DNA from: Azolla caroliniana
Taxonomy: Eukaryota; Plantae; Polypodiophyta
Direction of reading: 5' to 3'
NCBI GenBank assembly: GCA_043228905.1
Contig: JBHGNT010000012.1
Location: 5,766,001-5,830,000, forward strand
DNA: 64,000 nucleotides
Of the stretch, positions 4,993 to 64,000 are shown in pieces. Both the position numbers and the translations under genes were made by a program. Position 1 is the stretch's first letter, and each line of letters opens with the position of its first letter. The notes under the pieces were generated by a model, which was not told the DNA's origin, ran no database searches, and saw only the letters and a program-made list of their open reading frames with translations.

Positions 4993-5026
<34 letters not shown>

Positions 5027-18185: not shown

Positions 18186-18245
18186 TATCCTAGTGGTTGA
18201 TGCTATACATCATCTTTGAGGAGGTCGTGGGTTTGAATCTCTATA
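18186..18245 (+). promoter_or_regulatory. tRNA-like A/B-box module in chromovirus A LTR
   Basis: TATCCTAGTGGTT...GAGGTCGTGGGTTTGAATC. Confidence 0.6.
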
Positions 18246-18939
18246 TATTACAAGTCTTAGAGTTTTGGTATATGTTCATGACATTATCCCCTTCCTTTGA
18301 CGATGAGTTCCACGAGTCGCAATGCACAAGCTAGGAGTTGGCTCATTTGGATATTGTCGATGAAATTCAGCTAGAAGTTCTTTGGTACTATTGAGATTTT
18401 CAGTTGGCTCCCATGTTCGATCCGTTGGTGTATAACCCAACCAATCAACAAAATGATACAATTTGTTCTTCACAACTTTGGAGTCCAAAATGGATTTCAC
18501 TTCATATTACAGGCCTTCATCAAGCTCAATAGGAGGTGGAGGGGGAACAACGTGATCTGGAATAGAATTTGAAGCGGTTCCAAGAGTGAGACATGGAACA
18601 CTGGCAGAAGACGCATATGAGGAGGGAGATCGAGATGAAAAGCAACTTCATTGATCTATTTAGTGATTAAATATGGACCAAGAAGTTGATAATCCAACTT
18701 GTTACAAGGCCTAGTGGTCTTCACATTACGTTGTAAGAGCCATACACGATCTCCAGCTTGAAATTTGGGTTTTTTCGGTGATGAGTTTCTGCAAATTTCT
18801 TATGGGTGGCTTGAGCATGATGTAAATGATGAGAAAGAGCAATATGAATTTCTCATATATGACGTAGGCAATCCTTTGCATCAGGGCTTTTCGAGATTCT
18901 TGGGTGGTCAATGTCATGAAGACAATATTTTGGCTTATC

Positions 18940-18995
18940 AAAAATCGAACCCATGACTTCTTGGTCTATGTGTTGAACCCTTAACCATTGAAATA
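18940..18995 (-). promoter_or_regulatory. tRNA-like A/B-box module in chromovirus B 5' LTR (also in the 3' LTR, ~24210-24265)
   Basis: TATTTCAATGGTTAAG...GAAGTCATGGGTTCGATT. Confidence 0.6.
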
Positions 18996-19395
18996 ACATA
19001 TATGTTGTGTGATTATAATAATTATATTTTTAGTTATTATGAGATATCTAAAATATTCTAGAACATTCTAGAATACTCCATAAGGATCTATAAATAAGTG
19101 TCCATACATTCATTTCAAGTCATTTGGTTCAACACCAGTCTTTAACCCTTAGCCTACTCATCGTAATCTTGTTTCATCATAATATAATCTCATTTCTATT
19201 TCAAGTCTTATCTCTCTCTCTCGCTCGCTCGCTCTCTCTCTCACGCACAAACACACACCCTCTCTCTTTCGCTATCGCTCTCGCTCTATGTCCTACCCAC
19301 GTGTCTCGACAGTTTGAACCAAATATTTCTGTTTCCTTTTCCAATAACCCTACCAAGCTTTCTTCTTTTCCCTTCTTTCTTTTTCCCCCTCGGTT

Positions 19396-22300
19396 ATGGA
19401 ATCCGTCAACAAGCAAGAGTATATGTGTGTCCTTTCGGAGCTCGACATGCTCACGACTAAGTTTGAGGCATTAGAGCAAGAAAATCAAAGGTTGCTCGGG
19501 GATTTACAACAAGTGAGTACCAAGAAAGCTCATCAATATGAGGAGTTATCACAACGGGTTCATCAACTCGAGGCTACTATATTAACATTACGAGAACTCC
19601 CCAAGGGAACCAAAGATTAGCCTCCCTACCAAGTTTGATGGTACCCGATCTTTGTTTCGGGGTTTCCTAAATCAAGTCCGTTTGGTGATTCAGTTATATC
19701 CCAATCGGTACCCAACTGATGTTGCTCATGTGGGATTAATAGGAACCTTGCTAAGCGGTACAACATTAGCATGGTTTGCACCACTTCTAGAGAAGAAATC
19801 ACCATTGTTGGAGGATTTCGGGGCATTCGTTAAAGAGTTTCAAGCTAGTTTTGGAGACACTGATAGCACTAGGACGGCAATAAACAAGATTCGAAGACTC
19901 CAACAAGGAGATCGTCCCGCATCAGCCTACGCAGCCGATTTCCGTCTCTTGGCATGTGACATCCCTTGGGATGAGGCAGCCTTAATGGATCAATTCCGTC
20001 AAGGTTTGCGTAACGATGTCAAAGATCTTCTTCTTACTTTCCACGAAGATCCAAAGTCTCTTACAGAGGCCATTAGTTGAGTTGTGCGATGTGATAATCG
20101 CCTATTTGAGCGACGTTCTAAACGTCAACAAATGTTACGCCGCCAACCAGAACAGACGTATGCTTCAATAGTCGCAACACCGCCACAAGTTCCCATACCC
20201 GTTACAAGGGATGGTCCCACTCCAATGGAAATAGAGTCAACACAACATCGAGGGCCTTTATCAGATGCTGAGAAACAATGACGTTGGGCGCATCGCCTAT
20301 GCCTCCATTGTGGTGATCCAGGACATATTGTTGTGAATTGTCCACATAAACCCAGACATCAAGTTTACCAAGTAAGTGCACATGACAACCCTACCTCGAG
20401 TTCTACTATCACTTCTAATAACTTAACTACTAAGCCTAATAACCCATGCCATGAGAATAGATTTGATTTCTTGAGCCAATTAGAGGATGTGTTAAACGAA
20501 TAAGTCCGGCCAAAATAGGAGCCATTTGGTTGGGCCATCCTAGATATGTAGAGTCAGTACCTAGTTGTGGTTCCATTTCATCAAATCAAGTTAGTAGAGT
20601 TTTTTCTGCACAAGTCGAGCTTAGCACATCTATAGGTCATCGAGTTCTAGCCTCTACCCTCCTAGATTCTGGAGCCAATTCTTGTTTCATGGATCGCGAG
20701 TTTGCATTGACCCAAAACATCATCTTGAATAATCTCCCAAACCCAATAGCCGTAGGAGTCATCGATGGTCGCCCTTTAGCATCATGTGATATAGTCGAAG
20801 AGTCTAAACCAATCCGTGTAGTCCTAGGTAATTTGGCTAGTATCATCTCATTCAATGTCATTAGTAGTCTAGAGCAATCTCTAGTTCTTGGTCTTCCTTG
20901 GTTTGAGTTACATAACCCAACTATTGATTGGAGAAAAAGAACTATTGAAGAGGTCACACTACAATCCGAATCTCTTGAAACTCCAACAAAGGATCTAGGA
21001 TCCCACACGATTTCAACAATCTCTATACATCAGTTACAAGAGGATGGAAGGAAGGAAGACATGATGGTGTTTGCGGTTTTAGCAACTCCCTCATCTAGCT
21101 CACAAGAATTGGGGGTCCAATTACCAAAGAAGTACATAGAATTCTCCGATGTGTTCGATAAGGTGAAGGCTAATAGACTACCAGAGCATCGACCATATGA
21201 TTGCCCGATTGATTTGCAGCCAAGAAAAGAGCCTCCATGGGGGCCAATTTATAACCTTTCGCCCACGGAGTTAGAGGTTCTTCGAGAATATATCGATGAG
21301 AACATGGGAAATGGTTTTATCCAACATTCAATATCTCCTGCTGGTGCACCCATCTTTTTCATTAAGAAGAAAGATGGTACGCTTCGTATGGTCGTGGATT
21401 ATCGGGGCTTGAATAAAGCGACTATTAGAAACCGATATGCTCTACCATTGATCTCAAGCCTTCTAGAACGCCTCAGTGGAGCAAAGTATTTCACGAAGTT
21501 AGATCTTCGAGGTGCCTACAACCTTGTTCGAATTCGTCCTAGGGATGAATGGAAGACCGCGTTCCGCACTCGCTATGGTCATTTTGAGTATACAGTGATG
21601 CAATTTGGTCTCACGAATGCACCAACAGTTTTCCAACATATGACGAATGACATTTTTCGAGACTTCCTCGATATCTTCATCATAGTTTACCTGGATGATA
21701 TCTTGATCTACTCAAAAACTCAAGAGGAGCATGAGATACATGTTTGCCAAGTTTTGCAATGGTTACGAGAGTATGGTCTCTATGCAAAATTGGAGAAGTG
21801 TAGTTTCGACCAGTGTCAAGTGGGATTTTTGGGGTACATAGTCTCTTCAAATGGCATCTCTATGGATCCATCAAAGGTTCAAACAATTTTGGATTGGCAA
21901 ACACCATAGTCTGTGCGAGATGTACAATGTTTTTTGGGGTTAGCAAACTTTTATCGCAAGTTCATCAAAGATTATTCAAAGATTGTATTGCCCCTCACTC
22001 AACTAACGCACAAGAATCAACAATTTATATGGGGTATAGATGCGAACTCTGCATTTGAGGGTTTAAAGCAAGCATTTACATCTACACCAATTTTAATGCA
22101 TGTCGATCCAATGAGGCGCTTTATACTTGAAGCTGATGCATCTGATTTCGCACTCAAAAGCATACTATCCCATATTGATGAAGATGGCAAACTGCACCCT
22201 GTGGCTTTTCACTCATAGAAATTTGAAGCCGCAGAAATCAACTATGAGATTCACGACAAAGAGCTTCTTGCCATTGTGGATTCTTTTCAACAATGGCATC

Positions 22301-24180
22301 ATTTTTTGGAGGGTTCTTCTCAACAGATTATTGTCTACAATGATCACAAAAATCTAACATACTTCCAAAGTGCTCGATTCTTGAATCGTCGACAAGCTCG
22401 TTGGGCGCAGTTCTTAACTCGTTTTGATTTTGTAATTCTATATCGCCCTGGGATGCAACAAGGAAAAGTAGATGCTTTATCTCAACGTTCGTATATGGAA
22501 CTTCAACCAGGAGAGGCTGCATTTGAAAGTCAAAAGCAAATCCTCTTAGGTCTTGATTGTCTACGAGTAATGGCAATACATACTATCAACACACCGGGAG
22601 ATTCAAGGCTTCTTGATTCCATTCGGGAGCAGATTGCGACCGATGCATTCGCCCAATAGGTTTTGAGTCATATTATCCTAGATCGTGCTTCCAGCTCCCA
22701 ATCTCAAAATCCTCGTCTAGACCACACCCAGTTCAGTTGGCATGATGATTTGATTTTTCGGCAAACTCTCTTGTATGTGCCTGACGGTCCTTCTCAACTC
22801 AAAGTCGTGCAACAATGTCATGACACGGCAATGGTTGTACACTTCGGCATCCACAAGACTTTTGAGTTGATTTCTCGTCGATATTGGTGGCCACGGATTT
22901 GCCATTTTTTTATGGATTATGTTTGTAGTTGTGATACATGTTGCCGATCAAAAAAGCCTCAACATCATCCATATGGCCTATTACAACCAATGCCTATTCC
23001 GAAGAGCCCATGGAAATCTATTTCCTTGGACTTTATTATGGATCTTCCACCTTCCAAGGGATTTGATTCTATTCTCACGGTAGTCGATCGTTTTACGAAG
23101 ATGGCGCATTTCCTTCCATGCACGAAGACCATTACTAGTCAAGAGACAACTGATTTACTCATGCGGGAGGTGTTTCGTCATCATGGTCTTCCGGATGATA
23201 TTATCAGTGATCGGGGTCCCCAATTCATCTCGAAATTTTGGCGGCACATGTTCAAACTCTTACATACTTCTTGTAAACTCTCTTCCGGCTACCATCTAGA
23301 GACTAATGGGCAGAGTGAGCGCACCAACCAAATAGTCGAACAATATCTACATTGTTTTGTCAACTATCAACAAGATGATTGGGTGGATTTATTACATTTG
23401 ATGGAATTTTCTTACAACAACTCCGAACATTCTTCTACTGGATATTCCCCATTTTTTGCTAACATTGGGTACCATCCTCGTTGGACGATGCTTGAACATC
23501 CCAAACTCCCGAAAAACCCGGTTGCTGAAGATCGGCTCACTAGACTCCAAGAAGTTCAGGATATACTTTTGCATCATTTATGTGATGCCCAAAAAACTCA
23601 AAAGAAGATTGATGATCGTCATCGGCATGATTCATCGACTACATTTCAAGTAGGAGATCGTGTATGGTTGTTACAAGGTAGCCTTAAAACTACCCGACCT
23701 TGCTACAAATTGGATTATCAACGTTTCGGCCCATATGTGATCTCTGGTAAGATCAATGATGTGACATTTCGTCTTGATCTCCCTCCTCATATGCGTCTTC
23801 ACCCGGTCTTCCATGTTTCACTTTTGGAGCCCTACACAACAAGCTCTATTCTAGGTCGTCTTACACCTCCCCCACCTCCAATCAAAGTTTCCAACGGCTC
23901 TGAATATGAGGTTACTGTCATTCTCAACTCCAAGATCATCCGCAACAAACTATATTATTTGGTTGATTTTCTCAACTCCAAGATCATCCGCAACAAACTA
24001 TATTATTTGGTTGATTGGTTAGTTTATACACCTAATGATCGAACATGGGAGCCTGACGTTGCCGAGCATCTTGCTAATGCCTCTGACATGGTGATTGTAT
24101 TTCACAACAAATATCCCCATAAACCAAGTCCGAACTCTTATCTTCCGACTCGTGGAACTCGTCATCGGAAGGGGGGATAA
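19396..24180 (+). pseudogene. gag-pol of element B (gag, protease, RT, RNase H, integrase, chromodomain)
   Basis: LLDSGANSCFM, YLDDILIYS, ADASDF, IISDRGPQF, GPY, C-terminal chromodomain with a 13-aa internal duplication; in-frame stops. Confidence 0.92.
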
Positions 24181-24476
24181 TGTCATGAAGACAATATTTT
24201 GGCGTATCAATAATCAAACCCACAACTTCTTGGTCTATGTGTTGAACCCTTAACCATTGTAATAACATATATGTTGTGTGATTATAATAGTTATATTTTT
24301 AGTTATTACGAGATATCTAAAATATTCTAGAACATTCTAGAATACTCCATAAGGATCTATAAATAAGTGTCCATACATTCATTTCAACTCATTCGGTTCA
24401 ACACCAATCTTTAGCCCTTAGCCTACTCATTGTAATCTTGTTTCATCATAATATAATCTCATTTCTATTTCAAGTC

Positions 24477-24519
<43 letters not shown>

Positions 24520-25068
24520 GCACACACACACCCTCTCTCTTTCGCTCTCGCTCTATCTCCTACCCACGAGTCTCGACAGTCAAGCATTGTCCAACGGGGA
24601 TGAACACCCGTGTTGGCAAAGAAGGGAGTAAGTTTGGTAGAAGAATGAATTGAATTGTTGTAAGAAAACTCTGCAAAATGTAAATAATCTACCCAATCAT
24701 CCTGTTGATAATTGATGAAGCAATGAAGGTATTGTTCCAAGGTTTGATTGGTACGTTCGGTTTGACCATCAGTCTCTGGATGATAGCTTGAAGGGAGTTG
24801 ACAATCAATTTGGAGGAGCCCAAACAAGCGTTTCCAAAATGTTGAGTTAAATTGTGGTCCTCGATCACTAATGATGCCATCAGGAAGACCATGATGCCGA
24901 AACACTTCACGCATAACCAAATTTGTTGTCTCTTGACTATTAATTATCTTTTTGCATGGTAGAAAATGTGTCATCTTAGTGAACCGATCTACAACACTAA
25001 GGATGGAATCAAAACCTTTGAAAGATGGAAGATCAGTAATGAAATCCATAGATATAGACTTCCAGGGT

Positions 25069-26988
25069 CAAAAAGGGGTAAGCATAATAGATGTTTGCAT
25101 AATTGATGCAGATAAAGAGTGTGAAGCGGATGTGATTAAGGAGGTAGCCACAAAAGACGAAATCGAATCGGAGGTGGCTATGGACGAATCAATGGCGGAT
25201 TGCCATATCGAGACTTCCCCACCACTGATTCCAGAGACTCCGGCGGTTGCGATCGAAAGGCAACGTGAGACCGAAGAGACGGAAGGTGGCGGAGAGAAAA
25301 CGAATGTCGAAGCCGACGAATACGATGAAGAGATAGCCGAGAAGAATGCTAAGGGTGAAACTACGAAAGAAGGTAATACCGAGGATTCATGCCAACAATA
25401 TCTAGAGACTTCGGCGGTTGTGTCCGAGAACCAACGTGAGACCGGAGAGACGGGAGATGGCGGCGAGGAAGGTAAAGTCGGAAGTCGGTTCGGATGGAAA
25501 ATGATCCATCCGAAATTCCAATCTAAAAGAAAGTGTGACAATGCGGAGGTCGGGTCTACGACGGGAGAAGCGCGTAATACAGAGCACGCTCTACGGCGAA
25601 TAAAGAAACGCGTGTTATGGCGAATAAAGAAGCACGCGCTACGGCGAGAAAAGAAGCATGCATTACAACCACACGAGGACCGAACAACGAGCACATATCG
25701 GAGGACCTACGTAGCGAACAACGGAAAGAAGTGCCGAAAGTCGAACCGGACAAGGCAGGTGAAAACGAAGAAAAGAAAGCAAATCCGGACGAAAAGAAAA
25801 GAAAAGAAAACGACCCGAAAGAGCACTGAATCGGTAAAAACCGATCAACCGAGTCCGGATCGACCGAATACAAATCGGAAAGGAAGCCGAACTAAACGAA
25901 AGACGATCCGACGAGACCGAATCGGAAGTAAGCTAATCCGACTAAACCGAAAATCCGAAAAGAAGTCGAGATTGATGAAGAAAAGAAAGAGGCCAAGAAA
26001 AGATACTACCGCGGATGACAAGGACCAAGCGGGCCATGCAAAAAGCGAACGAAGACTATGGTGGATCGGATGTCGACAATGGTTCGGGTGGAAAGAATGG
26101 ATGTGCTCCAAATGGAGAGACAAAGTCAACATAACAAGAGAAGTCGAGGGTACTACGAGCCGGCAACGAAACCAATCGGGTAGAGACCGGACGGAGGAGA
26201 CTAACAAACACCAACAACTTCGGCACATACCGGAGGATGTGCGGGTTTGGAGGGGGTGAGTGTCGTAGTGTATTTTGTACACTACGTGAAAAACGTATAT
26301 AGTATTAGATTCAATAAAAAATGAAGAAATAGAAGAAAATAGCAAAATAAATGGAACATGCATAGGGCAAGATTCGAACCTTGCACCTCCATGTTAATAA
26401 TGTAATGTCTTACCATTACACTAGCATTTCATTAGTGTTAAAGCATAGATGTCCCACATAGAAAGGTAAATTCACGCTAGGATAAACATTAGAAAAACGC
26501 ATAACAAAAGAAAAAGCTACACATACACATCTAGCGTGCATGATAAAAAACGCACAAGTTAGAAAAAAGCATGATCACTTTAGATAAAGCATATAGTCTA
26601 TCTATAGGAAAAGCATGGGGTCTATAGTTAGAGAAAAAGCATGGATTACTAAGACTTCCTCATCACTACATAAGGATGGGGAGCACAATGTAATTGTGTG
26701 TGAAAAATATTTGGAAACTGGATATGTTTCTAAAAAACACCAATTAATAAACTATACTCGTGGGATTCACGAGAATTCTATATCATTCTCTTTCAACCGA
26801 AGTTTATATTCTTATATTCATATTGATTAATCTAATACAATACACTCGTGGGATTCACGAGTTTGCTATAACTCTTTCTTACAACATATTTATATTCTTA
26901 TTAGCCTTAAAACTCTCCTCTTCCTAGTCCAAAACCCCAGCGGTTCCCACCCGACTCACGCAACGATCCGGAGCCGAAAGGCACGACA
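25069..26988 (+). mobile_element. 5'-truncated Gypsy fragment: charged low-complexity 3' region, PPT and 3' LTR (26261-26988)
   Basis: CACATACCGGAGGATGTGCGGGTTTGGAGGGGG..TGTCGTAGTG junction and the ...GGCACGACA LTR end match the element at 61397-64000. Confidence 0.85.
26359..26426 (-). promoter_or_regulatory. tRNA-like A/B-box module in an LTR
   Basis: TAGTGTAATGGTAAG...GAGGT GCAAG GTTCGAAT CTTGC (paired T-stem). Confidence 0.75.
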
Positions 26989-27499
26989 GCGAATGTAGTC
27001 TTCAACATAATTACGAAGATGCGGCCACCAATAATTTCTAGAAACTAATTCCAAAGTTTTGTGAACTCCAAAATGTATATCCATTGGCATGTCATGGGAG
27101 TGTTGTAAATAAGGAGTCAAGAGCGGCCATCAGGGACATAAAGTAAATTATTTCGAAAAAGTAAATTATCATGCCATCTGAACTAATTATAATCTTTACG
27201 AGAATTCACAGACCTTGAACAAGAAGCATGATCTAGAATGATATGATTCAAGACATCTTGTGCAAATGCGTCTGCGTTAAGATCCGTATGAATCGTAATT
27301 ATAAGTATCACGTCCGTAGGCGTCTTAAAAGCATTAGCAACCATCACTTGTAAACGATCAAGATCAAGCAGGATCTGCTTTTGATGATCAAAAGTAGGTT
27401 CCCCTAAATAGGGCGCCATGTATGAACGGCGAGATAGCGCAAATTTGTCTTTCCCTAGTGTATTGTTGGGTGATACACGATCAAGAAATCAAAGCGAAT

Positions 27500-27900
27500 T
27501 GCAAGAAATGTAGTTGAATTCCATTAATCCTCGTAGGTCCCATCCGTAGCAACTTCATCACCATATCACCATATCATCAACCGTAAACTCAACATAATAA
27601 CATCCTTTGCCTAGGAATTGAATATCCACAATCCAAGGGAGATCTTCTTGGAATCATGCATGCATCAAGTGAGGCAACTCCCCACAACTAGGATGGCCTT
27701 CTAATTACATGTACTACCACCAACAGCTGACACAAATGGTCTATTTCGGCCTGCACCTCCATAGGCAAGGTTACTTTGACGACTAGATCTGCGACAGGAT
27801 GAATAACGAAGGGGAGTTCCCCAGAATCCCTTCTTGAGGTCATCAGGACCATTGTCTCAGCCATCGTCTCTATGTTTTTCTCTAATACAATCATAGAATT
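27500..27900 (-). mobile_element. LINE (L1-like) ORF1 N-terminal relic
   Basis: Minus-strand IVDIQFLGKG..YYVEF resembles plant L1 ORF1 (DUF4283-like). Confidence 0.45.
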
Positions 27901-30900
27901 ACTGAATCAAGTCTCTAACTAATTTCATGGCTCTCAAGAGGACAAAATGTGAATGAATCCAAACACAAGTTTGAATTATATATGTCATAGGAAGTCAACT
28001 CTATGTCGATTTCTTCATAGGTTTTCCTTATTGCCAATTCACCTTTTTTTCTTCTAGATGCCCACTAGCAACTCACGCCGACTTCAAGTGTTGTTCGCCT
28101 CCAATTCTTTTAACTCCCTCGTCGGCTCACCACCAACCAACTCACACTAACTACAATGTGCATGATGACTTAGAAACTTGTCGAACCTCGATTCAATCAT
28201 GTCTCGTAGCCTTTGCCTTTTAATGATCTGCCCACAACGTCGAACATAGTTTCAGATGAGCCACAAGAAGAGAAGTTATGTTGTTGATTCACCAAATTAC
28301 TTGTTTTTGAATAGTGAACAAGTTGGGTTTTAACCTTTTCCTGAAAGTGTGGTTCCAAACCATGTTTTGTAATGTTACTTTAGTACTTTTCCATACAAAT
28401 AATGATTTTGGACATTCCATCATACACGACTCGCAATTTAGTCCTTTGACGAGCACCCTTGGCCTTCATGATGTTGGTTTCTACAAAAAAAAAATTCATG
28501 TCAAATGCTAAATTTTCAAAAGTTATTAAACCTAGAAAATATTTCACACCTTTTCCCGAATTGTATTTGTAAATATGCAACAATAGGTATGGTTTTCAAT
28601 CATGGTTATTATAGTTCACCAAATGTCTCTTATACGATGTTTCCATGCCTCGCCACTTCATACATTGTCCAATTTACTCATGTGATTCGGTGCCAACTTT
28701 CTTAGATTTAGCAAGTTGTTACCTTACATTGAAGCAATCAACATTGGTGCAATTCACACAACCTAACATAATATCAAAGGTGGAAGTGGTTTTCTCTTTT
28801 GAGTTATTGAGGAATCCAACATGTATGTTAAGACATTGTTGCAATGGTTGTGCAAATTGTTTGGTGATCAAGGTCATAAGTTTGATACATTTATGTAGTA
28901 TGGAGTAAAGACCTTGTCTCGATAGTCATAAAGCTTGCAATTAGGGCAATCAAAATTGTCACCGTTTTTGAGTTCTCATGAATGGAGGTTCATGGAAAGC
29001 CCTAATTGGGTCAAATATATATACCTTTATTGATAACCATCTTGAACATTTACCTTACTTTCTAAATCAAGTCCAATAGCCTGCATAAATGGTTGACAAA
29101 TATCAAACATTTTAATGTATTAATAATTCAAGTTTGATATAATTGATGGAGGTTTTGGAAGGATGCATATTGTCGTTTATCTTTGTAATGGCATCTCTAT
29201 CAATGCATTGAAAATAATTAATATGAAAGGCAATATGAACTTTGTTGTGTAAAGGTGAATTTGTGTATGGCACTTCCCAATTTCATTTTATAATGATAAA
29301 TAGAACAAATTATCATGTTGAGAACTTAGTAACCTTGACTCACATAATCACCAACAAGGAACCTTAACAATGATTTTTTTCACTTTCTTCAAAGGCAACA
29401 ACTTGCTGATGCACGTTTACATAATTTTTATTCTACTATCGAGACTCATATATGGTGACATGTGACATGTACAACAAATGAGGATGATCTAAAGTAGAAT
29501 ACAACAAAAATCCTCATCAAATGCATCTAGAATTGACGATCAAGGTTGAAACCCATCCTTAATTTGAATGGCTTAAGAAACATGTGTTGCACCATTGTAT
29601 AGAACTCTATAGGAATTAATGATCATCTTGGTTGGTTTGTTTACTTAGTGACACCATCCACTCACCACTGCTACCAAACAAAGTCATGACCTATGCATGT
29701 GTTGATCGATTAACAATGAAATTAGGTGAAATGCTTTTTGACTTTACATTAGGGATTTGAATGCTGCAACAAACCTCCTATATATTGAGATGCTATCATC
29801 ATTATTTGTTTGACATATGTCATTTGAGTACATACTCATAAATATCATTGTAGAAGTGTTATCAATAAGATTGTCACGTACAATGACATAAATTTTACTT
29901 ATTCTGGGACGATGGAACGTTGAACTATTGTGATGCACATGAAGGAAATGGGGCCAATTTTCAAGATCCATAGGTATGTATATATATGCATAATTATTTG
30001 TATATCTATCTATTTCAATCGGTCTCTTTCTCACAATTACATCTATGATGTTTGAGCCAGTGGCAACCCAAGGGCATTCATTTTGTAGATGCATGAGACC
30101 AAGTTGTTGTTGCCTTTTTTTTCTTTGTGCATCATATTAAGGTTTTCAATCTTTGGCATTAAAGTGATTGGCTACAAAAAGGCAATTTTTTTCTTTCTAT
30201 GAACACTACCTTCTTGCATGGTGTTTCCAATTGTTCAACCACTTGTGAAGTGGCGAAGTATAGGTGGGGTTATTGCATTTCTTAGTTTTTTTTACCTTTG
30301 TAATACACCTCTATGTCTTGATGGGTTTTTCCTCCCAATCCATGACCTACCCCCTCGGTGTTTAGACCTTGCATTGAACGATGTCTACATTACCGATGTG
30401 TAGATTCGACATACATATAAATAGATTATTAACTCTAAGGTCATGAGTGCAAGGCTTGATTGTACTGACACTTCCATTGTGGAATGTAGGGGGGTAGAAT
30501 GCATGACTTTCTAGTCTTCGCTCTCTCGACAACCAATCAGGTCAAGTGTGTTGTCATCATTAGGGAAATTGTAACTCTAACCAACTCTTGAGAGCCGAAA
30601 CTTTGACTTCAGAAGCATTTCAATGTATCATTAACTATTTTCACCTGTTGGAGATTGATAGTATGGTCCCCGATTAATTCCCCTTTTTTGGATGATATCC
30701 TAGCTTGTCGTATCAAAGGTGTTATTGGCAAAGGCTAAGAGTTGTTTTCATGGATTATAATTAGCTTTATCTTGCCAAATATCATCGCTTATATTTGGTT
30801 CTTTCTTTGATGATATATACTTGTGGAGTGGAAACTATTATGTACTATTTGTATATTGCCTTTGGCATTGTTAATTTTAATACCAATGGAGCATATTTTT

Positions 30901-31139
30901 TATCGAAAAAAAACTTTGACATCAGAAGCAACGACGAATAGGCCAATCGAAACGTGCGAGGCTTCAGACCATAGTTTCCTTTTCCTCTCTTTACGACAAC
31001 TTGCCCTCCTACTTGTCTCATTCTCCCATCTCTCGCTCTCTCTCAGGAGCCGCAAGCCGTGGCCGCCTCTCTCACTCGATGGGGCTTCTAGGTCACACTT
31101 TCTCGTGTCCCCCGAATCGGTGGAGTGATAAACTTTAAG

Positions 31140-31870: not shown

Positions 31871-32039
31871 AAAGGTCTCTCGTTATCGACTTCCTAAAAT
31901 TACATGCATGGGAAACAAGCCCAAAAAAGATCTAAACGGACGCATAAAGGCAAAAATTTGTGTTCCGAGGATCCAAAATAAGCATATCACGTATTATTTT
32001 TTGGTCTCGTTTACTCATATTTGACCTCCGAAGACGATA

Positions 32040-32550: not shown

Positions 32551-32563
32551 CGATCGAGCAGCC

Positions 32564-39006
<6,443 letters not shown>

Positions 39007-42770: not shown

Positions 42771-42804
<34 letters not shown>

Positions 42805-48288: not shown

Positions 48289-48388
48289 GCTCATTCTAAA
48301 GTATGGCATAACAAAATCGAGGTCAAGAATCTAGAAGAAGGTTATACATCACAAGGACACAAGAAAAAAATTAAAACTTAAAAGGTTA

Positions 48389-48600: not shown

Positions 48601-48659
48601 GTATGGGATAAGTTTTGTTTAACATATAATGTGATAGATTGTTGGAATGCACCTAACTT

Positions 48660-51600
48660 TCAGATGCAAAAAGAAAAATCTCTTCTATACTCTAAAGTAG
48701 GAGGAAGCGTGCATGGCGATGTCCAGGCTGGACAGATGGTATTTGGACCCTCATCTCATCGATAGGAAAGACAAATGCATTATTTGTCCTAGAATGATGT
48801 TCTCAGACCATGCACTAGTTCTATTGCATATACAAGAAAACAATCAATGCAGGCCACATAATGTGAAGGGGAGCAAAGAATTGGTTATTGACAATAAATG
48901 GACTGATGATATATTAAGAAGAATATGGTCTGATGTCAAATGGATGTATCATGATCCCGCTCATAGGCTGGCTGGAAAAATTGTGGAATGTGCATTCTTC
49001 TTTCAGAAGAAAGCAACTGAAATTAGAAAAGAGACGAGGAGAAACTGCAGAGAATGCAATGGACACTCACTTCTGTGCAATGACTAAGAGAACAATACCC
49101 GAATAATGTATGGATTGAGGCCCGACTAAAGGAGGCAAAATGCAAACTGGATATGTATTAAGAAACTAAGGACTACCAATGCCTATCAAAGTAAAGCAAC
49201 AAGTTGGATGAGGGTATGAGACCATGTTACTAAACGTTTTTTTGAAGCTGTCAAATGCAGAGGCTCCGGTCATGTTTAAAAAAGATAGATGGCACAATGA
49301 CCACGTGCGCGGTGGAAATGCTTGAAATGGCCACGAGCTATTATATGCAACTATTGAATGTATGCAAAGAGGGACAGATTGATCAAGATGCCTTTAGAAA
49401 TATAATAAATAGGATACCGAAGAGAGTTACTGCTCAAATGATAGATCGACTAAATACCCCTATATGTATGCAAGAATTGTGGGATGTAATTGCAGATATG
49501 AACAAACAAAGTTGCACACGCATTGATGGACTCCTTATATACTTTTATATCAAACATTGGGATCTAATTAAGGATGACATGTTGGGAGGGATGCAATATA
49601 TTATGATAGAAGGTTTAATGCTTACAACAATGTGCAGATGAATGATTTATTTAACACCCAAGGATGGAAAAGATGTGACAATACTTGATAATTGGCGACC
49701 ATTGACGATTCTCACCAATGCCTATAAGATAATGGCTGAAGTTGTAAGTAGTCGATTGAAAACAGTACTAGGGGACATTATACATACAACACAAATTGGC
49801 TTCCTAGAAAACCGAAGCATTGTTGACAATGTGATAACTTTATGGGAGTATTCAGCATGGGCAGAGGAGCAAGAAGTGGACCTGGCAATAAGGCTACTCA
49901 ACTTCGAAAAAGCATATGACAGGATCTCATGGGAATTCCTAAAAGCAATGATGGAGGCCCTAGGGTTCGAGTAGCAATGGATCCTTGGAACAGATGCCTT
50001 CTACAGGGATGCATCCAACCAAGTTTTAATGGCTGGAAGCATGGGCAAGAGCTTTAAGACATCACAATCGGTACACCAAGGATGCCCATTGGCCCCGTAC
50101 ATATTCATTATTGCAATAGAAGCTTTGCATGATCAGATTGCTGATAGATCTTGGCAAATACAAGGTCTTCCCTTGCTCGATGATGTAGGAATGTTGCTTG
50201 ATACAGAATATGATGATGATACAACGACTTACATTAAGGGGGATGCAAACAACTTGGGCAAAATAAAAAGTGCAATTAATGAGTTTTGCAAGAGCTTGGG
50301 TGCTAAAATAAATTGGAATAAATAAGTGGGGATTTGGATTAGTAATAAGCCTGTGTGAAATTGGACGCCGACCCCCAATTTCAAATGGTTGAGGAGAGGA
50401 GAAGCTACCAGATACTTGGCTTTCAAAATCGGTATGGACATTGATTGATTAGAACACTACAATCTACTCGTGGACAAAATAAAAGCGAAGCTAATATGGT
50501 GGAATGCAAGAAAACTATCCTTCACATGCAAGATTGTGATTGCAAATCAAATTCTAATGGCCACCATATGGCATACTAGATAATCACGACCAAGTTGATG
50601 AAAGTGATAAAAAGGCTTATAAAAAATTTCTTATGGGGGGCACCGAGGAAAAACATGCTTGTGAAAATGTATATGGGCACTCAAAAGGCTAGAATATGTA
50701 GGATAAACAAGGGTAAAAGCATGCTCAAGAGAATTACAGATGCCATTGCACGCATCATGCAAACCTTGGAAGATGAAGATATAATTACCTCCGAAATTGA
50801 ATGGGCAGGACTTATAGATGTTGGAAATTATCCAATTGGAATTAAGGGAATGAAAGCAGGATCTAATGAGGCATACTACAACAAAATAGAGCATGGAATG
50901 GCAACATGTGAGCAACCAACCTATCAAACTGAAAGGCCGATTAGGTTGATTGCAAAAATAGAAAGGATATGATTGTTGACCCCAGGCCGAGTGAGATCAC
51001 ACCAATGACAATGTGTTGGCCGGTAGAAGCGCATTCAGATCACTTATCATGGGACCCAACAATGTATTTCTGGAGAACTCAAGGATGAATTGAGGGTGCC
51101 AAGTTGGTTCAATGTTTTAGGTACAACACGAAAATCAAGAGGCAAATTATTCTAGAACAAGAACACAAAGATATTGCAGCACATAAATATTGGATACAGA
51201 AGGGCATTAATGAAAGGAGATTAGATCAATTCTGGAAAATGATATGGCATGACAGTGGTGATCGCAAGATAATGATGTGATTAAGCCTTGCCGATAGGGA
51301 CATGGGGTAAACGCCCCAATGTAGACCCTAGATATAGTGCATGTGAAAACCATCTAGAAATCATTTCCCATTGTCTATGGGAATGTCGCAAGGCAACGGA
51401 TGTATGGGGAAGGGCATTGCGATTGCTATGCCATGCCTCTAGCTCATTTATCCTCAAATGGGGACATGCTTATTGGAACTGTCTTGATGATGATGTGGAA
51501 AAATTTGATAGCACATGCAAAGCAATGTATAGAGGGAAGAATGGAACTATTTGATTGATCATTGATAACAAGACACGTATAGTTAGTGCACAGAAGAAGT

Positions 51601-51870
51601 AAATTGGAGATCTATGGATGTTGCTTGTACCCATTATCATATGTGCATATGGACGACAAGATGTACCCTGAGGGTATTTTCAGCTAACAAACGACCTCTA
51701 GCTGAATCTATTAAGCTAATATGGCACACATTAATAACTACATTGAGGGCACAATATGAGTGGATTGATGGAACAGATGATGCTTTAGAACGAATGAGGC
51801 TGAATTTCAGAAATTGTTGGTGTACTACATCGATGGCTGCAAAAACTGGAATGAATATATGATGGCAGTA
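48660..51870 (+). mobile_element. Degenerate L1/Tx1-like LINE ORF2 (endonuclease end, RT, zinc finger)
   Basis: SRLDRWY..SDH, NWRPLTILTNAYKI, FEKAYDRISW, QGCPLAPY, EYDDDT, CENHLEIISHCLWEC; many stops. Confidence 0.9.
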
Positions 51871-52859
51871 AGATGTGAATAGATGGGAATCCTGTAATCA
51901 TGTATTCCTTAGGTTGATGAAAGTACAACCATGTATTCCTTAGGAATTCTCAGAAAAACAACTGAAATAAGGGTCAAACGGTACCTTGAGTTCATAATTT
52001 TGACGAGATTGAAGCCCGGTTTCCAAGACAAAAAACAAGCAGCTGCATTCTGAATGTTGATCATATTCGCATTCAACATGACATGTATGGGCTCAATCAT
52101 ATCCAATTCTAGGTGATAGAAAGCATGTCTCATACATTAGATGTCAATTATTTTACCTATGTGATGTTGAATAACTTCATCAATGAGGTCACGTAAATCT
52201 CCTCTCTTCAACTGTAACCCTATTACCCCACACACAATTGAGTAGGTGTGTAGACAACTTACCTCTTTCTACAACAAGGCTCCTTCATTAGGCGTGAAAA
52301 CCATCGTAATAGGAAACCGTTGAGGAGCTGTCAGGGGCACTACATCCAAGTTCTTGTGGCGTGTAGCGTTGGGCATCTTGTAAAACGTCTTCTTCTACTT
52401 TTCCGTCTTCTATTTGCTTTGTTCGCTCACTCCCTCGGGTCCATCTATTTTCTTTTATTCTTTCACATTAATTTTTTTCATCTATGTGATTGTGATTGTT
52501 AATTTCTATATTAATTTTTCTATGTACACATATAGTAAACCCTAATTTTTCTATGATGGCATCCGGTAAGGTTACAAAAGGGGTGCCTCATCCGACTACC
52601 CGATTACAGAACGGTGCGGATCCGGATTGGTACAACTATCCAGATCCCTCATTTCCTTAATCTAAATTACCTATAATATTCTATTATCCGTTGGCTTTAT
52701 CCCTTTTCGGTTCACACCTCCGCCTCTAGATCATACTCTTTCTTAGGCCAACACATGGCACACCCGGGGGACATTGCATTGTGCGTCGAACCCACAAGTC
52801 AACTCCCTTACTCCTCGTCGAGTATGTCCAGGATGCGTTGGTCCAATGGTTCCATCCGC

Positions 52860-53909
52860 TGTCGTGAAGATTTTCGGCAATAGTGTGAAAATCCCATAAA
52901 ACGTACGAAATCGAGTATGAATCACGTAATACAATAATTGTGAAGATAACATTTTTAATATCTAAGTACAAAATGATGGAGGTTTCGAATGCACTTTATT
53001 ACACGAGAAATGGAAAACTAAATGTCAAGATATGAGGGTATAAAGTTTGTGAAAAGAAAAGAGAAAATTGTGAGATATCCCACATAGGCACGACAAATAC
53101 GGCTCTCATCATATATAAGGTGGAGCAAAAGATATTATCTTTGTGTTTATGTGTGGAGCATAGAGAGTTTAAGCTAACTTGAACTAACAGTGGAGGTGGC
53201 TAGCTACTCGAAAAGGGTTTTGGCCAACCAAAACCGGACCGGCGATGGAGCCGGTGATCCGACGGCATCCGGCGGCGGCACTGGTATCTGACGTCGGCAT
53301 CCGGCGGCGGCACCGGCACCGGTATCCGGCGACGACGTCGGCATCTGGCGGCAGCATCTGGCGAGGCATCGGTATCCGGCGAACCGGCGTCCGGCGACTA
53401 GATAAAATAAATATATAAATATATATATATTTACATATACAAGGAGGGCAAGTATGGATTCGAACCTTACACCTCCAAGTTAGGAGTCAATTGGCTTACC
53501 ATTAAGCCATGTTATTTAGTTGAAATTATATTTCTATCATTGTACTTTTACGTGTAAATTCTCATCCATGAGAGCTAAAATGAGTGACATGGTTAGCATG
53601 CACCACATGTAATACTTAAGCGCCAAATGGCAAACATGCAATTTATGCATGTCTTGTACCCTCACATGCATCATATGCATGAGAGCATCTATAAAAGAGG
53701 GAAGGGGGAGGAGAAAAACATGGTTTTTTTTATGAAAATTAAGAGGAAGAAATTCGTTTTCAAATCAATCGTGTAATCTCAACTTCTCTCTTTCCCAATC
53801 TATCTTAAGTACTTTCTCGCCAAAGCTTGTATCGACTCTAAATCCTTCTGGTCCAGAACCCCGGCGGTTTCGCCTCACGATCCGCGCATAGTGACGGATC
53901 TTCATGACA
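52860..53909 (+). mobile_element. Solo LTR (~1050 bp)
   Basis: Termini TGTCGTGAAGAT / ATCTTCATGACA (11/12 inverted match), 4-bp TSD CCGC, TATA at ~53689, CCGG-rich array 53225-53400. Confidence 0.9.
53452..53509 (-). promoter_or_regulatory. tRNA-like Pol III A-box/B-box module in an LTR (best-preserved example)
   Basis: TGGCTTAATGGTAAGCC (A-box, D-stem GGCTT/AAGCC), CTCCTAA loop, GAGGT, GGTTCGAATC B-box. Confidence 0.75.
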
Positions 53910-54202
53910 CCGCTCTTCTTTAGTCCCCGTCTGTTGCTTAATCTCCGGCTCTAACTGCTTCACTTGGGACTCCGGCTGCTTCGCTTGTGTCTCCGGCTCC
54001 GGCTCTGTCTCTGTCTGCTCCATCCTCTGCGTCTCTAGTTTTGGATTCGACTGTTACTGTTTCGAGGTCCCCGGGTCTACTTGTTGGTCTTCATCACTAA
54101 TATCTATCTTTTCAGCTCTCTACTCCACTTCTTTCCACCTTCGCTCCCACTCATATGCTTCCAAGTCCAGTGTCGCTTGTAGTTGATCATCTTCAAATTG
54201 TT

Positions 54203-56629: not shown

Positions 56630-57880
56630 TGTCGTGATGTTTTCTAACACATAGTGTGAAACCAACCTCGAAAAGAAGTAAAATAGTAGTTCAAATAAAC
56701 TAGTATTGTGAAGTCAACTTTATTGGTAACAAAAATACTTTTTCATTTACCAAAGATAATTCCTTATAAATAAATGGTCAAAGGTTGAACATTACAATAA
56801 ATAATGATGAATATTAAGTTAGAGGCGGTTTTCAAAAGTAGAGAAAAAGATGGAGAGAGAAATAAACAACGCGTGGATATGAGGAGCATAGTAGAGAAAA
56901 ATGTCATAATTTCCACGTCAAATGTCCAAATTAGAAAAGAAAATATGCATAAGAAAGATAACCCAAAGAGCTTTCTAAGAATATCTTGCATGTGAAATTT
57001 GGGGCTAGAAAACAGAAATAGTGAGAAAAAGAAATGTCAACTCATATAGACAAATTTTTTTTAGGGGAAAAAGGCAAGCAATCCTAAACCTATAAATAAG
57101 AGCCTATTCTAGTGAAGAAGAGGGGGAGGGAGAAGGAGCATGGAAGCTCTACTCAATTGGAAGGCAAAAGTAGAAGGATCAACAACATCGAGAGGCATCA
57201 TCAACAAAGAATCACCTTCTTCTATATTCCACTCGCTTCTTTCCTCCACCTCTCTTCCCCCTTCCTTTATAAATTATCTCTCATATTCATATCAAACCCG
57301 TTGTAAAATTGATTCTTATTTTATAAAAGAATCTATTATATTGCAATAAAATAATGTTTGGTTTCACCTACGTATCTTATATGTTATCATCATTTTTGCT
57401 TATTTGTTTGTGTGCCTTGTGACAAGGGAGCGTTTCGGGCTTGCCCATGCACCTCTCCTTTCACAAAGGCATTCAAACATACATGCCTTATATGTTATTG
57501 TCATTTGTGCTTATCTGTTTGTGTGTCTTGTGACAAGGGAGCATTTCAGGCTTGCCCATGCACCTCTCCTTTCACAAAGCCATTCAAACTTTTGTGTCTT
57601 GCGTGTTAGTGTAAATCTTGCTTGTGTGTTCGTGAAACTTGTGGCAAGGGAGTGTTTGGGCTTGCCCATGCACCTCTCCTTTCACAAAGGCGTTCGAAAT
57701 TGTATCCCGTGTGTAAACTTTGGTAGTGTGTTCGCGTGTCTTGTAACAAGGGAGCGTTCAGGCTTGCCCATGCACCTCTCTTTTCACAAAGGCATTCGAA
57801 ACTTTGTCTCTCGTGTGTGTAAGTAAGCCTTTTCCTTGTGTGTCCGGGTGTAAGCCTTCCTCACGTGCATTCGTTCGCCT
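56630..57880 (+). mobile_element. LTR with the same 5' terminus type as 52860, cut near its 3' end by Copia 4; contains four ~102-111 bp repeats
   Basis: Starts TGTCGTGATGTTTTC..ATAGTGTGAAA; TATA at ~57090; repeats at 57418, 57529, 57640, 57742. Confidence 0.75.
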
Positions 57881-60800: not shown

Positions 60801-61396
60801 TGCGCGTGAACCGTTTCCTCGGTGCCTTGCGCGGGGAGAGCACGGCAGAGTCTCCACCACTTGCCGTCTCTTCATCCGACTGGTCCAACCGACTTAGTCG
60901 CTCGTTCGGTCCACTCAACCGTAACGATTCCGGACTCTCATCTTGAGTCCCGACATCATCATCCTCTGCCAGGGCTGATTCAGGCTCACTGGCCTGATCT
61001 TCCGACATTGGGTCGGGATCGGAAGTCGGAGTCGGTACGGAGTACCAGGATGCCGATTCATCGAACTCGACATCCCGGCTAACCTGGACTTCCTTCGTCC
61101 GGGGGTTATAGCACTTATACCCCTTTTGCTCTTCAACATAGCCGACTAGGATGCATTTTTCCGATTTTGCATCCAGCTTTCTCCGCTTCTGATCCGGCAC
61201 ATGCACATACGCTATGCTGCCGAATATCCGAAGGTGTCTAAAGTTCGGCTTGCGCCCGAAATACAGCTCATGAGCTGACACCTTGTCACCAATGTGGTTT
61301 TGTATGTAGACGGCCGTCTGGACCGCCTCCGCCCAGTAGAACCGGGGCATGCTCTTTTCCTCCAGCATTGCCCTTGCCGCTTCGACGAGTGTCCGG
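57881..61396 (-). mobile_element. Young Copia element 4 (integrase C-terminus, RT, RNase H, long C-terminal extension), 3' LTR 57881-58306
   Basis: [59 protein letters not shown]; one frameshift at ~60150; PPT TTGAGGGGGAG. Confidence 0.95.
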
Positions 61397-64000
61397 TGTC
61401 GTGCCTTTCGGCTCCGGATCGTTGCGTGAGTCGGGTGGGAACCACAGAGGTCTTGGACTAGGAGAAAGAAGTTCGTGAGATAGAGATTAATTATGAGTAA
61501 ATAGCAAAGAGAAAGACAAGAAACTCGTGAATCACACGAGTATACTATATTAATTGGTACTTAGGGTGTTAAGAGAGAAGTAGATGTATAAATCGTGAAT
61601 CCCACGAATAATTTTTGTATTGATTAATACTTAATCCAAATAATCAACAACCCTTTACATATTTTTCTCCTCCTTATATAAGGAAAGAAGAGCTAAGCAT
61701 GGCTTCATGCTTTTTTTTTTTTTTACAAAAAGTGTTCATGTCCACTAAATGTCCATGTGATGCTTTTTTTATTTCCTAAGTATAGGGCTCATGCACGCTA
61801 GATGTGCATGAGTTATTTTTAGTGTCTCGCGTTTTTCTTTTTCATATATTAAAAAAATACACGATTTACCTTTTAATAAAGGTATGCATAAATAAAGGTC
61901 TTATACGTATTAAATCTATATTTAAAACACTTAAGATAAGTTAATGTAATGGTAAGGTTGGGGTTTGTCAACGTGGAGGTGCAGAGTTCGAATCACGCCC
62001 TGCGCAGTAGTGAGTATTTCCTTTCTTTTTACATTTATGTCTCTTTCTTTTTACATTTGCCGGTATGCCGTTTTCTTCCTTGCCGGTATGCCGTTTTCTT
62101 CCTTGCCGTTTTCTTCCTTGCCGGTATGCCGTTTTCCTCCTTGACGGTATGCCGTTTTCTTCCGGTTCTTACCGAGCACTCCATTCTCTATCCGGAGGGA
62201 CAAAAATATAATTTCCACATAGTGTGCAACCTACACTACGACACTCGCCCCCTCCAAACCCGCACATCCTCCGGTATGTGCCGAAGTTCTTGATTCTTCA
62301 TATCTGTCTTCATCCGAAGCTTCCTCCGATTCTCCCCTTATGTCGACTATGAGTTGTAATCCACTTTCTTCGCTTCCCGCATCATTGTGGTCTTCGTCCG
62401 ATTGCTCCTCGTTGTTGGCCTCGACTTGGATCACATAAGGTTTGTCGTCGGTCCGCTTCTTGAAAATCTTCACCCGTTTCCCGGCTATAGGCACTCGTAG
62501 TATTGTTCCATCCAACTCGGACAGTCGGTACGTCCCGTTGTCGAAGACCTTCCGAACCTCGTACGGCCCGAACCACCTTTTCGCGAATTTCCGCATCGTT
62601 GTATGTTGATGGTCCAAGCTACTATCATAGACGATCACCCAATCTCCTTCTTCAATCCTCCTCGGTCGTAGTCGGTGCTTTGTGTCGAACCGGCTTTTGT
62701 TCCGGAACCGTGCTTCTTGTTGTCGGCGTGACGCTTCCGCTACATCTTTCGGTCTTCCCTCCAGTTGTCGTATCCGGACCGCTAGTAGTTCTTCCCGGCT
62801 CATCTCTTCCTTCCACGGTAGTATTGTCCATGTCGCGATTGCGGTTTCCGTTGGCATTACCGGTGCTTGTCCGGTCATGAGTTCTGCCGGCATGTAACCG
62901 GTCACGGAGCTATGCGTCGTCCGATCCGCCCATAGTGCATACGGAAGCATTTGTGGCCAATCCTTCACCCTTCCGTCGCATGCCTTCGCAAGTGCTTTCA
63001 CGATCGGACTATGTCCTCGTTCGATCTTCCCGTTGGCCTCCGGATTGTAGGCCGTTGTCAACGTTAACCGAACTCCATGTTTGGCGAAGAATCCCCTAGC
63101 TTTGTCCGAGTCGAGTTCTCCCCGGTCCGCAATCACTTGTCCTACGCAGCCGTACCTACAAAACACTTCTTCCAAAAGAAATTGGCACACCGCGGCACAC
63201 GTTTTCCTCCGAAGCGCCCGACCTTCAACTTGGTTTGTGAGATCTTCTCGAGCTAACACCAAGTATTTCTTTTGTCCAATCCCGGTCGGCATAGCTACAA
63301 TGTCGACCATCCACTTGAAGTTGATTGTCGGTGAGAATGTCGGATGCAGCTCATCTCGGTGTCGGACCCCGGAGTAGACTTGACATTTCTCGCAGCTTTC
63401 TGTGAACTCCGCGACATCTTTATACATGTTCTTCCACCAATATCTTTGCTTGATTTTCACAAAAGTTGCCCATGTTCCTCGATGTCCAGCCCAATCGGAT
63501 TCGTGGAACTCGGACATTATCCGGTTTCGTTGCTCTTTCGTCCCGACTACTCGAAGTGGTATCCCATCCGGTCTTTTTGGCGTCCTCCATATTAAACCGT
63601 TTTCCAAGAAGAACTTTTGGACTTGCCTCTTCATCCTTCGGATCTCGGCTCTCCTTTCTTTATCATTGGTTGAATCCTCGACCTCTTGTAGCATCTTCCC
63701 GATCATCAAGGTTTCCCCCTCGTATTCTTCTTCCCGGAATTCTCGGATCACGTTCACTCGGCATATGTGTTCTGACGTGAAGTAGTCTTCGGAAACTTCT
63801 TCATTATCTGATTCGGTTATGTCGTCTTCAAACCGCGCCCTCGATAACATGTCCGCTACCGCGTTGTCCTTCCCCGAGATGTGTCGAACCTCCGGATTAA
63901 GTGACTTGACATATGCAATCCACCTTAGCATAGCCACATCCGGTATCGTACAACACCGCATCATCCCGAGTATCGGAAGACAATCCGTCTCGATCACCAC
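61397..64000 (-). mobile_element. Young non-chromovirus Gypsy inserted into Copia 4; 3' LTR 61397-62243; intact RNase H-integrase ORF 62231->64000 running off the window
   Basis: RHISGKDNAVADMLSR, H..H..C..C zinc motif, VIADRGE, NGKIERGH, GPY; no chromodomain; PPT GGAGGGGGCGAG. Confidence 0.93.
61942..62006 (+). promoter_or_regulatory. tRNA-like A/B-box module in an LTR
   Basis: TAATGTAATGGTAAG...GAGGTGCAGAGTTCGAATC, followed by a T-run at ~62026. Confidence 0.7.

Follow-up and report, generated by a model that had tools for sequence, protein, structure and literature searches.

A tRNA-type box module conserved in antisense in the U3 of Gypsy LTRs from Azolla: a putative TFIIIC-binding element

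The window analysed here (the whole stretch of 64,000 nt at positions 5,766,001 to 5,830,000 of contig JBHGNT010000012.1, Azolla caroliniana assembly GCA_043228905.1) contains six long terminal repeats (LTRs) of Gypsy retrotransposons that carry, within their U3 part and in antisense, a module composed of a tRNA-type A box, a short variable-loop motif and a B box. We show that the boxes are under purifying selection, tRNA identity having been lost. Judging from the sequences and by analogy with known systems, we think it somewhat more probable than its opposite that these tRNA-derived boxes are kept in U3 as DNA bound by transcription factor IIIC (TFIIIC), where they would shield or open the RNA polymerase II (Pol II) promoter of the LTR. 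We propose more tentatively, and would not yet bet on it, that two deeply separate autonomous Gypsy lineages in non-seed plants independently domesticated a TFIIIC site as a portable chromatin barrier. Such a use of an antisense tRNA-type box module in protein-coding LTR elements is apparently undescribed.

The module bears on an open question, namely how transcription remains possible for elements that reside in heterochromatin or seek it out. If the proposed role is true, each copy would bring its own insulator into heterochromatin and scatter TFIIIC sites across the host genome; and if TFIIIC binds, these high-copy LTRs might form one of the main classes of extra-TFIIIC (ETC) sites in these plants. 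The range of RNA polymerase III (Pol III) promoters in LTRs would thereby grow beyond miniature passengers such as Cassandra and Helenus to include protein-coding elements, in which the promoter is turned the other way and serves another purpose. To our knowledge, the barrier activity of tRNA genes (tDNAs) has hardly been studied in these plants. Because this cis-element is conserved and a change of one base (C56) should inactivate it, the question can be put directly to the test; the module is also a compact candidate insulator for plant constructs.

Six modules in five insertions

The window (39% G+C) holds nested retroelements and a thiolase gene fragment. The hosts of the modules are two Tcn1-like chromovirus insertions (elements A and B) and three Phygy-like LTRs (LTR4, LTR5 and LTR6). 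In tRNA numbering, module 1 (18186..18241, + strand; T8 at 18186, A14 at 18192, G53 at 18231; 37.3 bits) lies antisense in the 3' LTR of B and carries C56T. Module 2 (18940..18995, − strand; T8 at 18995, A14 at 18989, G53 at 18950; 34.7 bits) belongs to the 5' LTR of A and has lost C61, and module 3 (24209..24264, − strand; G53 at 24219; 23.7 bits) to its 3' LTR, with C56T and C61 lost. Both boxes are intact in module 4 of LTR4 (26369..26423, − strand; T8 at 26423, A14 at 26417, G53 at 26379; 31.3 bits) and in module 5 of LTR5 (53455..53509, − strand; T8 at 53509, A14 at 53503, G53 at 53465; 31.6 bits). Module 6 of LTR6 (61942..61996, + strand; T8 at 61942, A14 at 61948, G53 at 61986; 25.8 bits) has A at positions 52 and 10.

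All six are antisense to their own LTR and lie approximately 100–270 nt upstream of a TATA-like box, those of LTR4, LTR5 and LTR6 being placed by motif only. The positions and orientation given by a previous sequence-only reading of the window are thus borne out. Its six copies are all real, but element A accounts for two of them (modules 2 and 3, one in each LTR), so that five independent insertions remain; likewise, the box pattern it reported is present in every copy, but modules 1 and 3 have lost C56. The distance from A14 to G53 is 39, 39, 39, 38, 38 and 38 nt in modules 1 to 6, which corresponds to the A-to-B spacing of 43–44 nt (T8 to G52) read earlier. Module 5 may resemble tRNA-Trp, the primer type of Phygy.

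A scoring matrix trained on 24 outside loci, with no window sequence included, ranks the six modules as hits 1 to 6 of the window (37.3–23.7 bits), the best of 100 block-shuffled windows reaching 19.8 bits. A generic A-plus-B pattern is not convincing by itself, with 12 matches in the window versus a shuffle mean of 9.0; restricted to a spacing of 37–40 nt, it gives seven matches versus a shuffle mean of 1.95 (maximum 7). In line with the earlier statement that the three Copia LTRs lack the module, four roughly delimited candidate regions for Copia LTRs in the window score at most 4.5 bits. A seventh, degraded module was noticed at 28837–28890 (+ strand; hit at 28880, 20.7 bits, T56), with no recognisable LTR and no locus match.

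Presence across relatives

An alignment of the integrase SH3 domain and chromodomain served as protein anchor for a sample of 387 relatives in metagenome contigs; the 80 best of these were retained. The LTR start was placed automatically in 68 of these loci and by hand in 4; none was visible in the other 8, which were dropped. Merging at 90% identity left 48 representatives: 36 on the side of the window's elements (the ingroup) and 12 on a more distant branch of the protein tree (support 0.78), the line between the two having been drawn after the sequences had been viewed. This sample covers the chromovirus side, and the Phygy-like side of the evidence consists of the three window LTRs and contigs. 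Among the viral contigs searched, no relatives were found.

Within the first 200 nt of the LTR, strict antisense A and B boxes occur in 27 of the 36 ingroup representatives, versus 0.24 in dinucleotide shuffles and 1 on the sense strand. With at most one mismatch the count rises to 34 (6.4 in shuffles, 6 on the sense strand). Both the shuffled-LTR check and the fixed orientation asked for by the sequence-only reading therefore come out in favour of the module. Distant chromoviruses, which come from different source datasets, so that lineage and host are confounded, show 0 of 12 strict antisense matches and 1 of 12 at one mismatch (2.6 expected); a strict match lies approximately 950–1100 nt downstream in 2 of the 12. 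No antisense B box is seen by eye in the LTR of SM-Tcn1 from Selaginella (PMC2864245). Relatives of A carry gag and a colinear pol. In the flanking DNA of locus L045 (1150–1260), a further, more distant chromovirus-type LTR start also has a module, with a spacing of 40.

For the Phygy-like side, contigs under four organism labels cover LTR4 from its first bases into module 4 or past it, with 16–25 differences, and module 5 is covered by contigs from three runs. This coverage indicates that the module is ancestral to these families. Dead copies decay: at 26376, in module 4, C56T occurs in all four runs at roughly a quarter to 30% of contig depth. Contig depth over module 4 exceeds that of its neighbours in four of four runs; depth cannot rank the parts of an element, so this was not used.

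Selection on the boxes

Identity was compared among 24 families hand-picked for recognisable boxes. Mean pairwise identity is highest at positions 44–48 (0.83), followed by the B box (0.75) and the A box (0.63), and falls to 0.39 in the anticodon arm, 0.38 upstream and 0.34 downstream. In the integrase codons of the same families, four-fold sites are at 0.42 and positions 1 and 2 at 0.77. Box bases have thus been kept while flanks and synonymous sites are saturated, which demonstrates selection on the boxes and upholds the view that these were retained and tRNA identity lost. A gapped alignment of 16 LTRs gives the terminus (0.73), the B box (0.81), the A box (0.71), the TATA box (0.72) and the transcript start (0.72) as its sole peaks.

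The bases G53, T55, C56 and T47 are present in 24 of 24 families, and the A14–G53 spacing is 38–39 nt in 32 of the 36 representatives; among these chromovirus relatives, the distance from module to LTR end ranges from 25 to 72 nt while the spacing stays fixed. The type-2 promoter consensus comprises a B box GGTTCRANYCY and boxes 30–60 nt apart (PMC12498455). Against this B box, 18 of the 36 representatives have no mismatch and 12 have one. For the A box, agreement with TRGYNNARNNG is partial: 21 of 36 have no more than one mismatch, and T8, R9, Y11, A14, R15, G18 and G19 are conserved, but G10 is found in just 11 of 36. The tract upstream of the A box is 68–92% A+T in all 24 families.

At the CpG of positions 56–57, the tolerated change G57A is found in 14 of the 36 representatives and is common to subclades of two to four families. 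C56T is found in 2 of 36, at single tree tips only; loci L011 and L013, merged into the cluster of L010, are likewise C56T. Over all 56 ingroup loci, with an anchoring independent of these two positions, the counts are CG 29, CA 21, TG 4 and other 2. In yeast, loss of the B-box C cripples TFIIIC binding (PMC4228148).

The three Phygy-like LTRs, which hardly align otherwise, agree (ungapped) at 9 of 9 B-box positions, 5 of 5 in the variable loop, 6 of 7 at positions 37–43 and 7 of 11 in the A box. In the D/anticodon 5' stretch only 1 of 13 positions agrees, and upstream the figure is 4 of 56. The sequence-only reading had named copy-specific insertions of short interspersed elements (SINEs) as the case that would overturn it. 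What was found is a family-wide module, in both LTRs of A and across families with saturated flanks, and no common tail was seen.

A probable DNA element rather than a folded RNA

Among 26 position pairs (T, D, anticodon and acceptor stems and the Levitt pair) in the 24 families, no convincing covariation was detected (lowest p 0.03, uncorrected). In 9–10 of the 24 families the outer T-stem pairs are formed; the partial stem pairing noted before is thus real but is accompanied by no covariation. Anticodon identity is not kept, in line with the earlier remark that the anticodon and acceptor arms are not conserved. Folding energies (mean z of −0.92) give no conserved fold.

A downstream T-run had also been listed as part of the module, and this must be abandoned: the first T4 lies 6–530 nt from G53 (32, 6, 530, 32, 58 and 40 nt in window modules 1 to 6), falls inside the LTR in 8 of 24 families, and is missing within 400 nt in 7 of 24. 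The modules have neither the cloverleaf nor the conserved oligo-T terminator of a tRNA gene. ARAGORN calls no tRNA at the modules; a relaxed run at 90% of its threshold picks module 4 among four calls, and noise dominates below. With the Rfam tRNA model, modules 4 and 5 score 13.4 and 11.8 bits (threshold 29), a scan of the whole window yields no tRNA match at E up to 10, and in 10 of the 80 loci the only tRNA matches are two real genes of locus L031, with none on modules.

Since no stem covaries and no T-terminator is conserved, the module is more likely to act as DNA than as a folded RNA, and the simplest reading of these sequences is a putative TFIIIC-binding DNA element. Two other candidates were rejected. 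Depletion of A-runs as a sign of long antisense Pol III read-through is not specific to module carriers, and pairing of the module with the 5' end of the element's own RNA amounts to at most approximately 7 nt, varies across families and leaves the A box unexplained.

Host elements and other features of the window

The lineages that carry modules are two distant Gypsy groups, as previously proposed: the integrases of element 6 and element A are 22% identical, and a chromodomain is found only on the Tcn1-like side, where both A and B have a Pfam Chromo match at the integrase C-terminus. Element A (18912–24578, + strand) is a full Tcn1-like chromovirus with a 5.7-kb gag-pol organization and the target-site duplication (TSD) GTCAA on both sides. 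It comprises a 5' LTR of 400 nt (18912..19311, +), an internal region (19312..24180, +) with primer-binding site (PBS), gag, zinc knuckle, protease, reverse transcriptase (RT), RNase H, integrase, chromodomain and polypurine tract (PPT), interrupted by stops in this copy, and a 3' LTR of 398 nt (24181..24578, +) with 91.9% identity to the 5' LTR. A 48-bp tandem duplication, in frame, lies in its chromodomain (approximately 23925–24020).

The Pol II TATA box of A (19088) and the predicted transcript 5' end (19122–19132), which is complementary to the PBS, span 19088..19132 (+). An 11-nt stretch 34 nt past the TATA box is the complement of the bases that directly follow the 5' LTR (PBS 19312–19324), and this self-priming complement fixes the U3/R border. 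Together with the 5-bp TSD it fits A to Tcn1, of which self-priming is typical; B is truncated. A PBS complement of 11–12 nt approximately 30 nt past the TATA box is found in A and in 13 of the 15 ingroup loci with a full LTR, and across the families compared (15 ingroup and 10 outgroup loci) it varies together with the PBS. In several families the self-priming primer holds a sense B-box-like GGTTCAAC. A seemingly similar arrangement is visible by eye in SM-Tcn1 of Selaginella, for which PMC2864245 reported none.

Element A landed in the integrase of chromovirus B. The 3' LTR of B (17791..18283, − strand, 493 nt) follows a PPT, has its TATA box approximately 280 nt in and is 85% identical to the LTR of locus L009. 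Its integrase C-terminus and chromodomain (18279..18911, −) are broken at 18911 by A, and B resumes at 24579–25076 and 26982–27509. Between module and TATA box, A has an nGAAnnTTCn array (19056..19074, +) that we take to be heat-shock-element-like; tandem copies occupy the same place in A-type LTRs, including loci L001–L008 and L039–L044, and are replaced there by CATGCA (RY-like) motifs in B-type and Phygy-like LTRs.

LTR4 (26261..26988, +) is the 3' LTR of a Phygy-like non-chromovirus fragment inside B and is preceded by a PPT. The 3' internal fragment of this element (25077–26260) has charged low-complexity frames with no Pfam match, and the 5' part of the element is missing. LTR6 (61397..62243, −) is the 3' LTR of element 6, in which the integrase reading frame (62234–64000, −) reaches the PPT, so that the coding region runs close to the LTR; this integrase lacks a chromodomain, and its named homologs are mostly from the liverwort Riccia. 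The three LTRs have common 3' ends. A 4-bp NCGN target is a mark of Phygy (PMC6317226), and the 3' flanks of LTR4 and LTR6 fit it. LTR5 (52860..53909, +; 1050 nt; 4-bp TSD CCGC; TATA-like box at approximately 53689) is a solo LTR, probably Phygy-like by LTR-end similarity and TSD; loose contig ends mark its borders on both sides, and one empty-site contig confirms the insertion. CpG-rich short tandem repeats occur between outer LTR end and module in LTR5 (approximately 53240–53400) and LTR6 (62050–62170).

Elsewhere, the window holds a Tc5/pogo-like DDE transposase reading frame (8021–9786) between long TATG-rich repeat tracts (4300–6750 and 10080–12000), a series of broken reading frames at 968–4260 (−) that match nothing in Pfam above threshold and may be what is left of a DNA-transposon gene, spliced thiolase gene fragments (32800–38500), and a decayed long interspersed element retaining RT pieces (48700–51900).

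Proposed role and competing explanations

How could such a module serve its element? From the box pattern, TFIIIC would bind the A and B boxes and TFIIIB would load on the A+T-rich tract at the inner side of the module. In the 5' LTR, the module faces outward and separates the Pol II promoter from the DNA that flanks the element; so bound, it could keep the promoter accessible, or guard it against neighbouring heterochromatin and read-in transcription, as yeast tDNAs and ETC sites would suggest. The outward orientation may have been kept since Pol III is thereby directed away from the Pol II start site. By this analogy, an insulator fits the anatomy of the module. The chromodomain guides insertion into heterochromatin, so that protection of the promoter would be valuable. 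As to its origin, the module could derive from a nearby tRNA gene, from an inserted SINE or from a primer tRNA copied by reverse transcription; in this last case no selection would be needed for the antisense orientation to arise. Differences between the two lineages at positions 43 and 48, and in the most common spacing, hint at separate captures.

Several points weigh against a TFIIIC-bound barrier. The near-invariant AGGT at positions 44–47 and the rigid spacing of 38–39 nt exceed the needs of a textbook promoter and find no explanation in it; the canonical A-box G10 is present in only 11 of the 36 representatives, and no single TATA-like position is conserved upstream of the module. In Phygy-like LTRs the module lies 119–606 nt from the LTR end; the earlier placement in the 5' part of U3 holds in that all modules are upstream of the TATA box, but in LTR5 the module is approximately 600 nt into the LTR and not at its edge. 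Yeast tDNAs can block Pol II (PMC4228148), and the element's own Pol II transcript crosses the module in the 3' LTR, so that a roadblock would be a cost. The box bases are also tRNA loop bases, and the asymmetry between C56 and R57 thus fits RNA pairing as well. To these must be added the hand-picking of the 24 families and the different sources of ingroup and outgroup.

Among the alternatives, a working Pol III gene, in which selection keeps an antisense transcript or the act of transcription (for element regulation or the seeding of small RNAs, compare the foamy-virus microRNAs), appears unlikely, though it deserves more credit than the others. The two boxes have been kept, as have the spacing of a native tRNA and the A+T-rich tract upstream, and the LTR cassettes of simian foamy virus need A and B boxes (PMC3993851). 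However, a T4 lies inside the LTR in only one-third of the families, the would-be transcript diverges as much as synonymous sites do and keeps no common fold, and the depletion of A-runs upstream of the 3' LTR, which long read-through would produce, is mild and not stronger than in the outgroup; the short antisense RNA considered in the sequence-only reading is weakened accordingly. Only slightly less plausible is a role of the U3 sense strand in genomic RNA, where it would pair with the D and T loops of host tRNAs during packaging, dimerization or minus-strand transfer. Such pairing would explain the fixed antisense orientation and the tRNA-exact spacing, and the U3 position fits as well; the T and D arms of the Ty3 primer pair with U3 (PMC5371799), Phygy elements are tRNA-primed, 81% by tRNA-Trp (PMC6317226), and variation at conserved positions consists mostly of transitions. 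Yet the PBS complement near the TATA box of the Tcn1-like hosts makes it likely that they use no primer tRNA. Moreover, the invariant runs are just 4–7 nt long, positions 49–51, 59 and 62–63 vary beyond what pairing to a single tRNA would allow, and the longest pairing to real tRNA genes in the loci (three tRNAs only) has a median of 7–8 nt and a maximum of 12.

We give a little less weight still to a role in integration, with TFIIIC/TFIIIB-bound LTRs acting as landing pads for tRNA-gene-seeking elements or steering the element's own cDNA. Ty3, DGLT-A, TRE5-A and Skipper-2 do target tRNA genes (PMC5006619), and in 2 of 60 loci element fragments have real tRNA genes nearby: three in all, for Asp, Asn and Thr (L009 128–201; L031 552–627 and 831–906), approximately 140–410 nt from truncated chromovirus fragments. 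These genes, however, adjoin truncated coding ends and not LTR ends. The nested insertions of the window (A and the LTR4 fragment, both into B) struck the integrase gene rather than a module; placeable breaks among 47 related LTRs of at least 250 nt fall at unrelated positions, although collapsed assemblies would hide rare insertions; and attracting other elements has no obvious benefit for the carrier. Finally, a neutral relic of a captured tRNA or SINE riding in LTRs is very improbable. In its favour, tRNA-like parts occur in 'not a few' Repbase LTRs (Kojima, PMC10886601), and individual copies do decay, C56T being found in modules 1 and 3 and in part of the contig depth at 26376. It is largely refuted, however, by box conservation at 0.63–0.83 against saturation of both the 17 nt between the boxes and the synonymous sites; moreover, the spacing stays fixed as the distance to the LTR end varies.

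Comparison with known systems

A search of full-text literature, with subscription journals and Repbase entries outside its reach, returned no conserved antisense A/B-box module in autonomous plant Gypsy LTRs. The remark of Kojima on 'not a few' LTRs (PMC10886601) means that curators may have seen such cases. The host elements themselves fit the Tcn1 and Phygy clades, known from moss and club-moss, of which the descriptions, in the sections consulted, mention no such module (PMC6317226, PMC2864245).

The closest parallel is Helenus (TRIMp3; Kojima 2024, PMC10886601), in which tRNA-derived LTR sequence likewise retains boxes A and B after loss of tRNA function, and of which one family occurs in Selaginella. 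However, Helenus is non-coding and 311–1263 bp long, whereas the hosts described here have a 5.7-kb gag-pol organization and their own TATA box. In the proposal for Helenus, the Pol III promoter drives transcription of the element itself, whereas the present modules point outward, being antisense in 27 of 36 representatives versus sense in 1. According to Kojima, moreover, autonomous partners rely on Pol II and would not be expected to have that LTR sequence in common with Helenus; in the parts of that paper covered here, promoter orientation is not explicit and the tRNA-like parts of Repbase LTRs are mentioned without follow-up (PMC10886601).

Cassandra, a terminal-repeat retrotransposon in miniature, resembles the modules in keeping an internal Pol III promoter in plant LTRs, but this is a type-1 promoter of 5S origin (boxes A and C) in a non-autonomous element, with the start in the 5S part and conserved terminators (PMC7215508, PMC10886601). 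The Pol III microRNA cassettes of simian foamy virus are also A/B-box units in the LTR of a protein-coding retroelement; their products are conserved hairpins with terminators, whereas the module body is unconserved and unstructured and has no conserved terminator (PMC3993851). The bipartite PBS of Ty3 similarly places tRNA-complementary sequence in U3, but it matches one primer tRNA in long runs, whereas the Tcn1-like hosts self-prime and their conserved runs are 4–7 nt (PMC5371799). HIV-1, too, reportedly has a tRNA-Lys3-like sequence in U3-R.

With regard to the proposed role, yeast tDNA barriers and ETC sites come nearest, as they act independently of any product as barriers, insulators, nucleosome-phasing sites and Pol II roadblocks (PMC4228148). 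Those TFIIIC sites are host loci, with effects shown in yeast, whereas the modules, known here from sequence, are the cargo of mobile elements.

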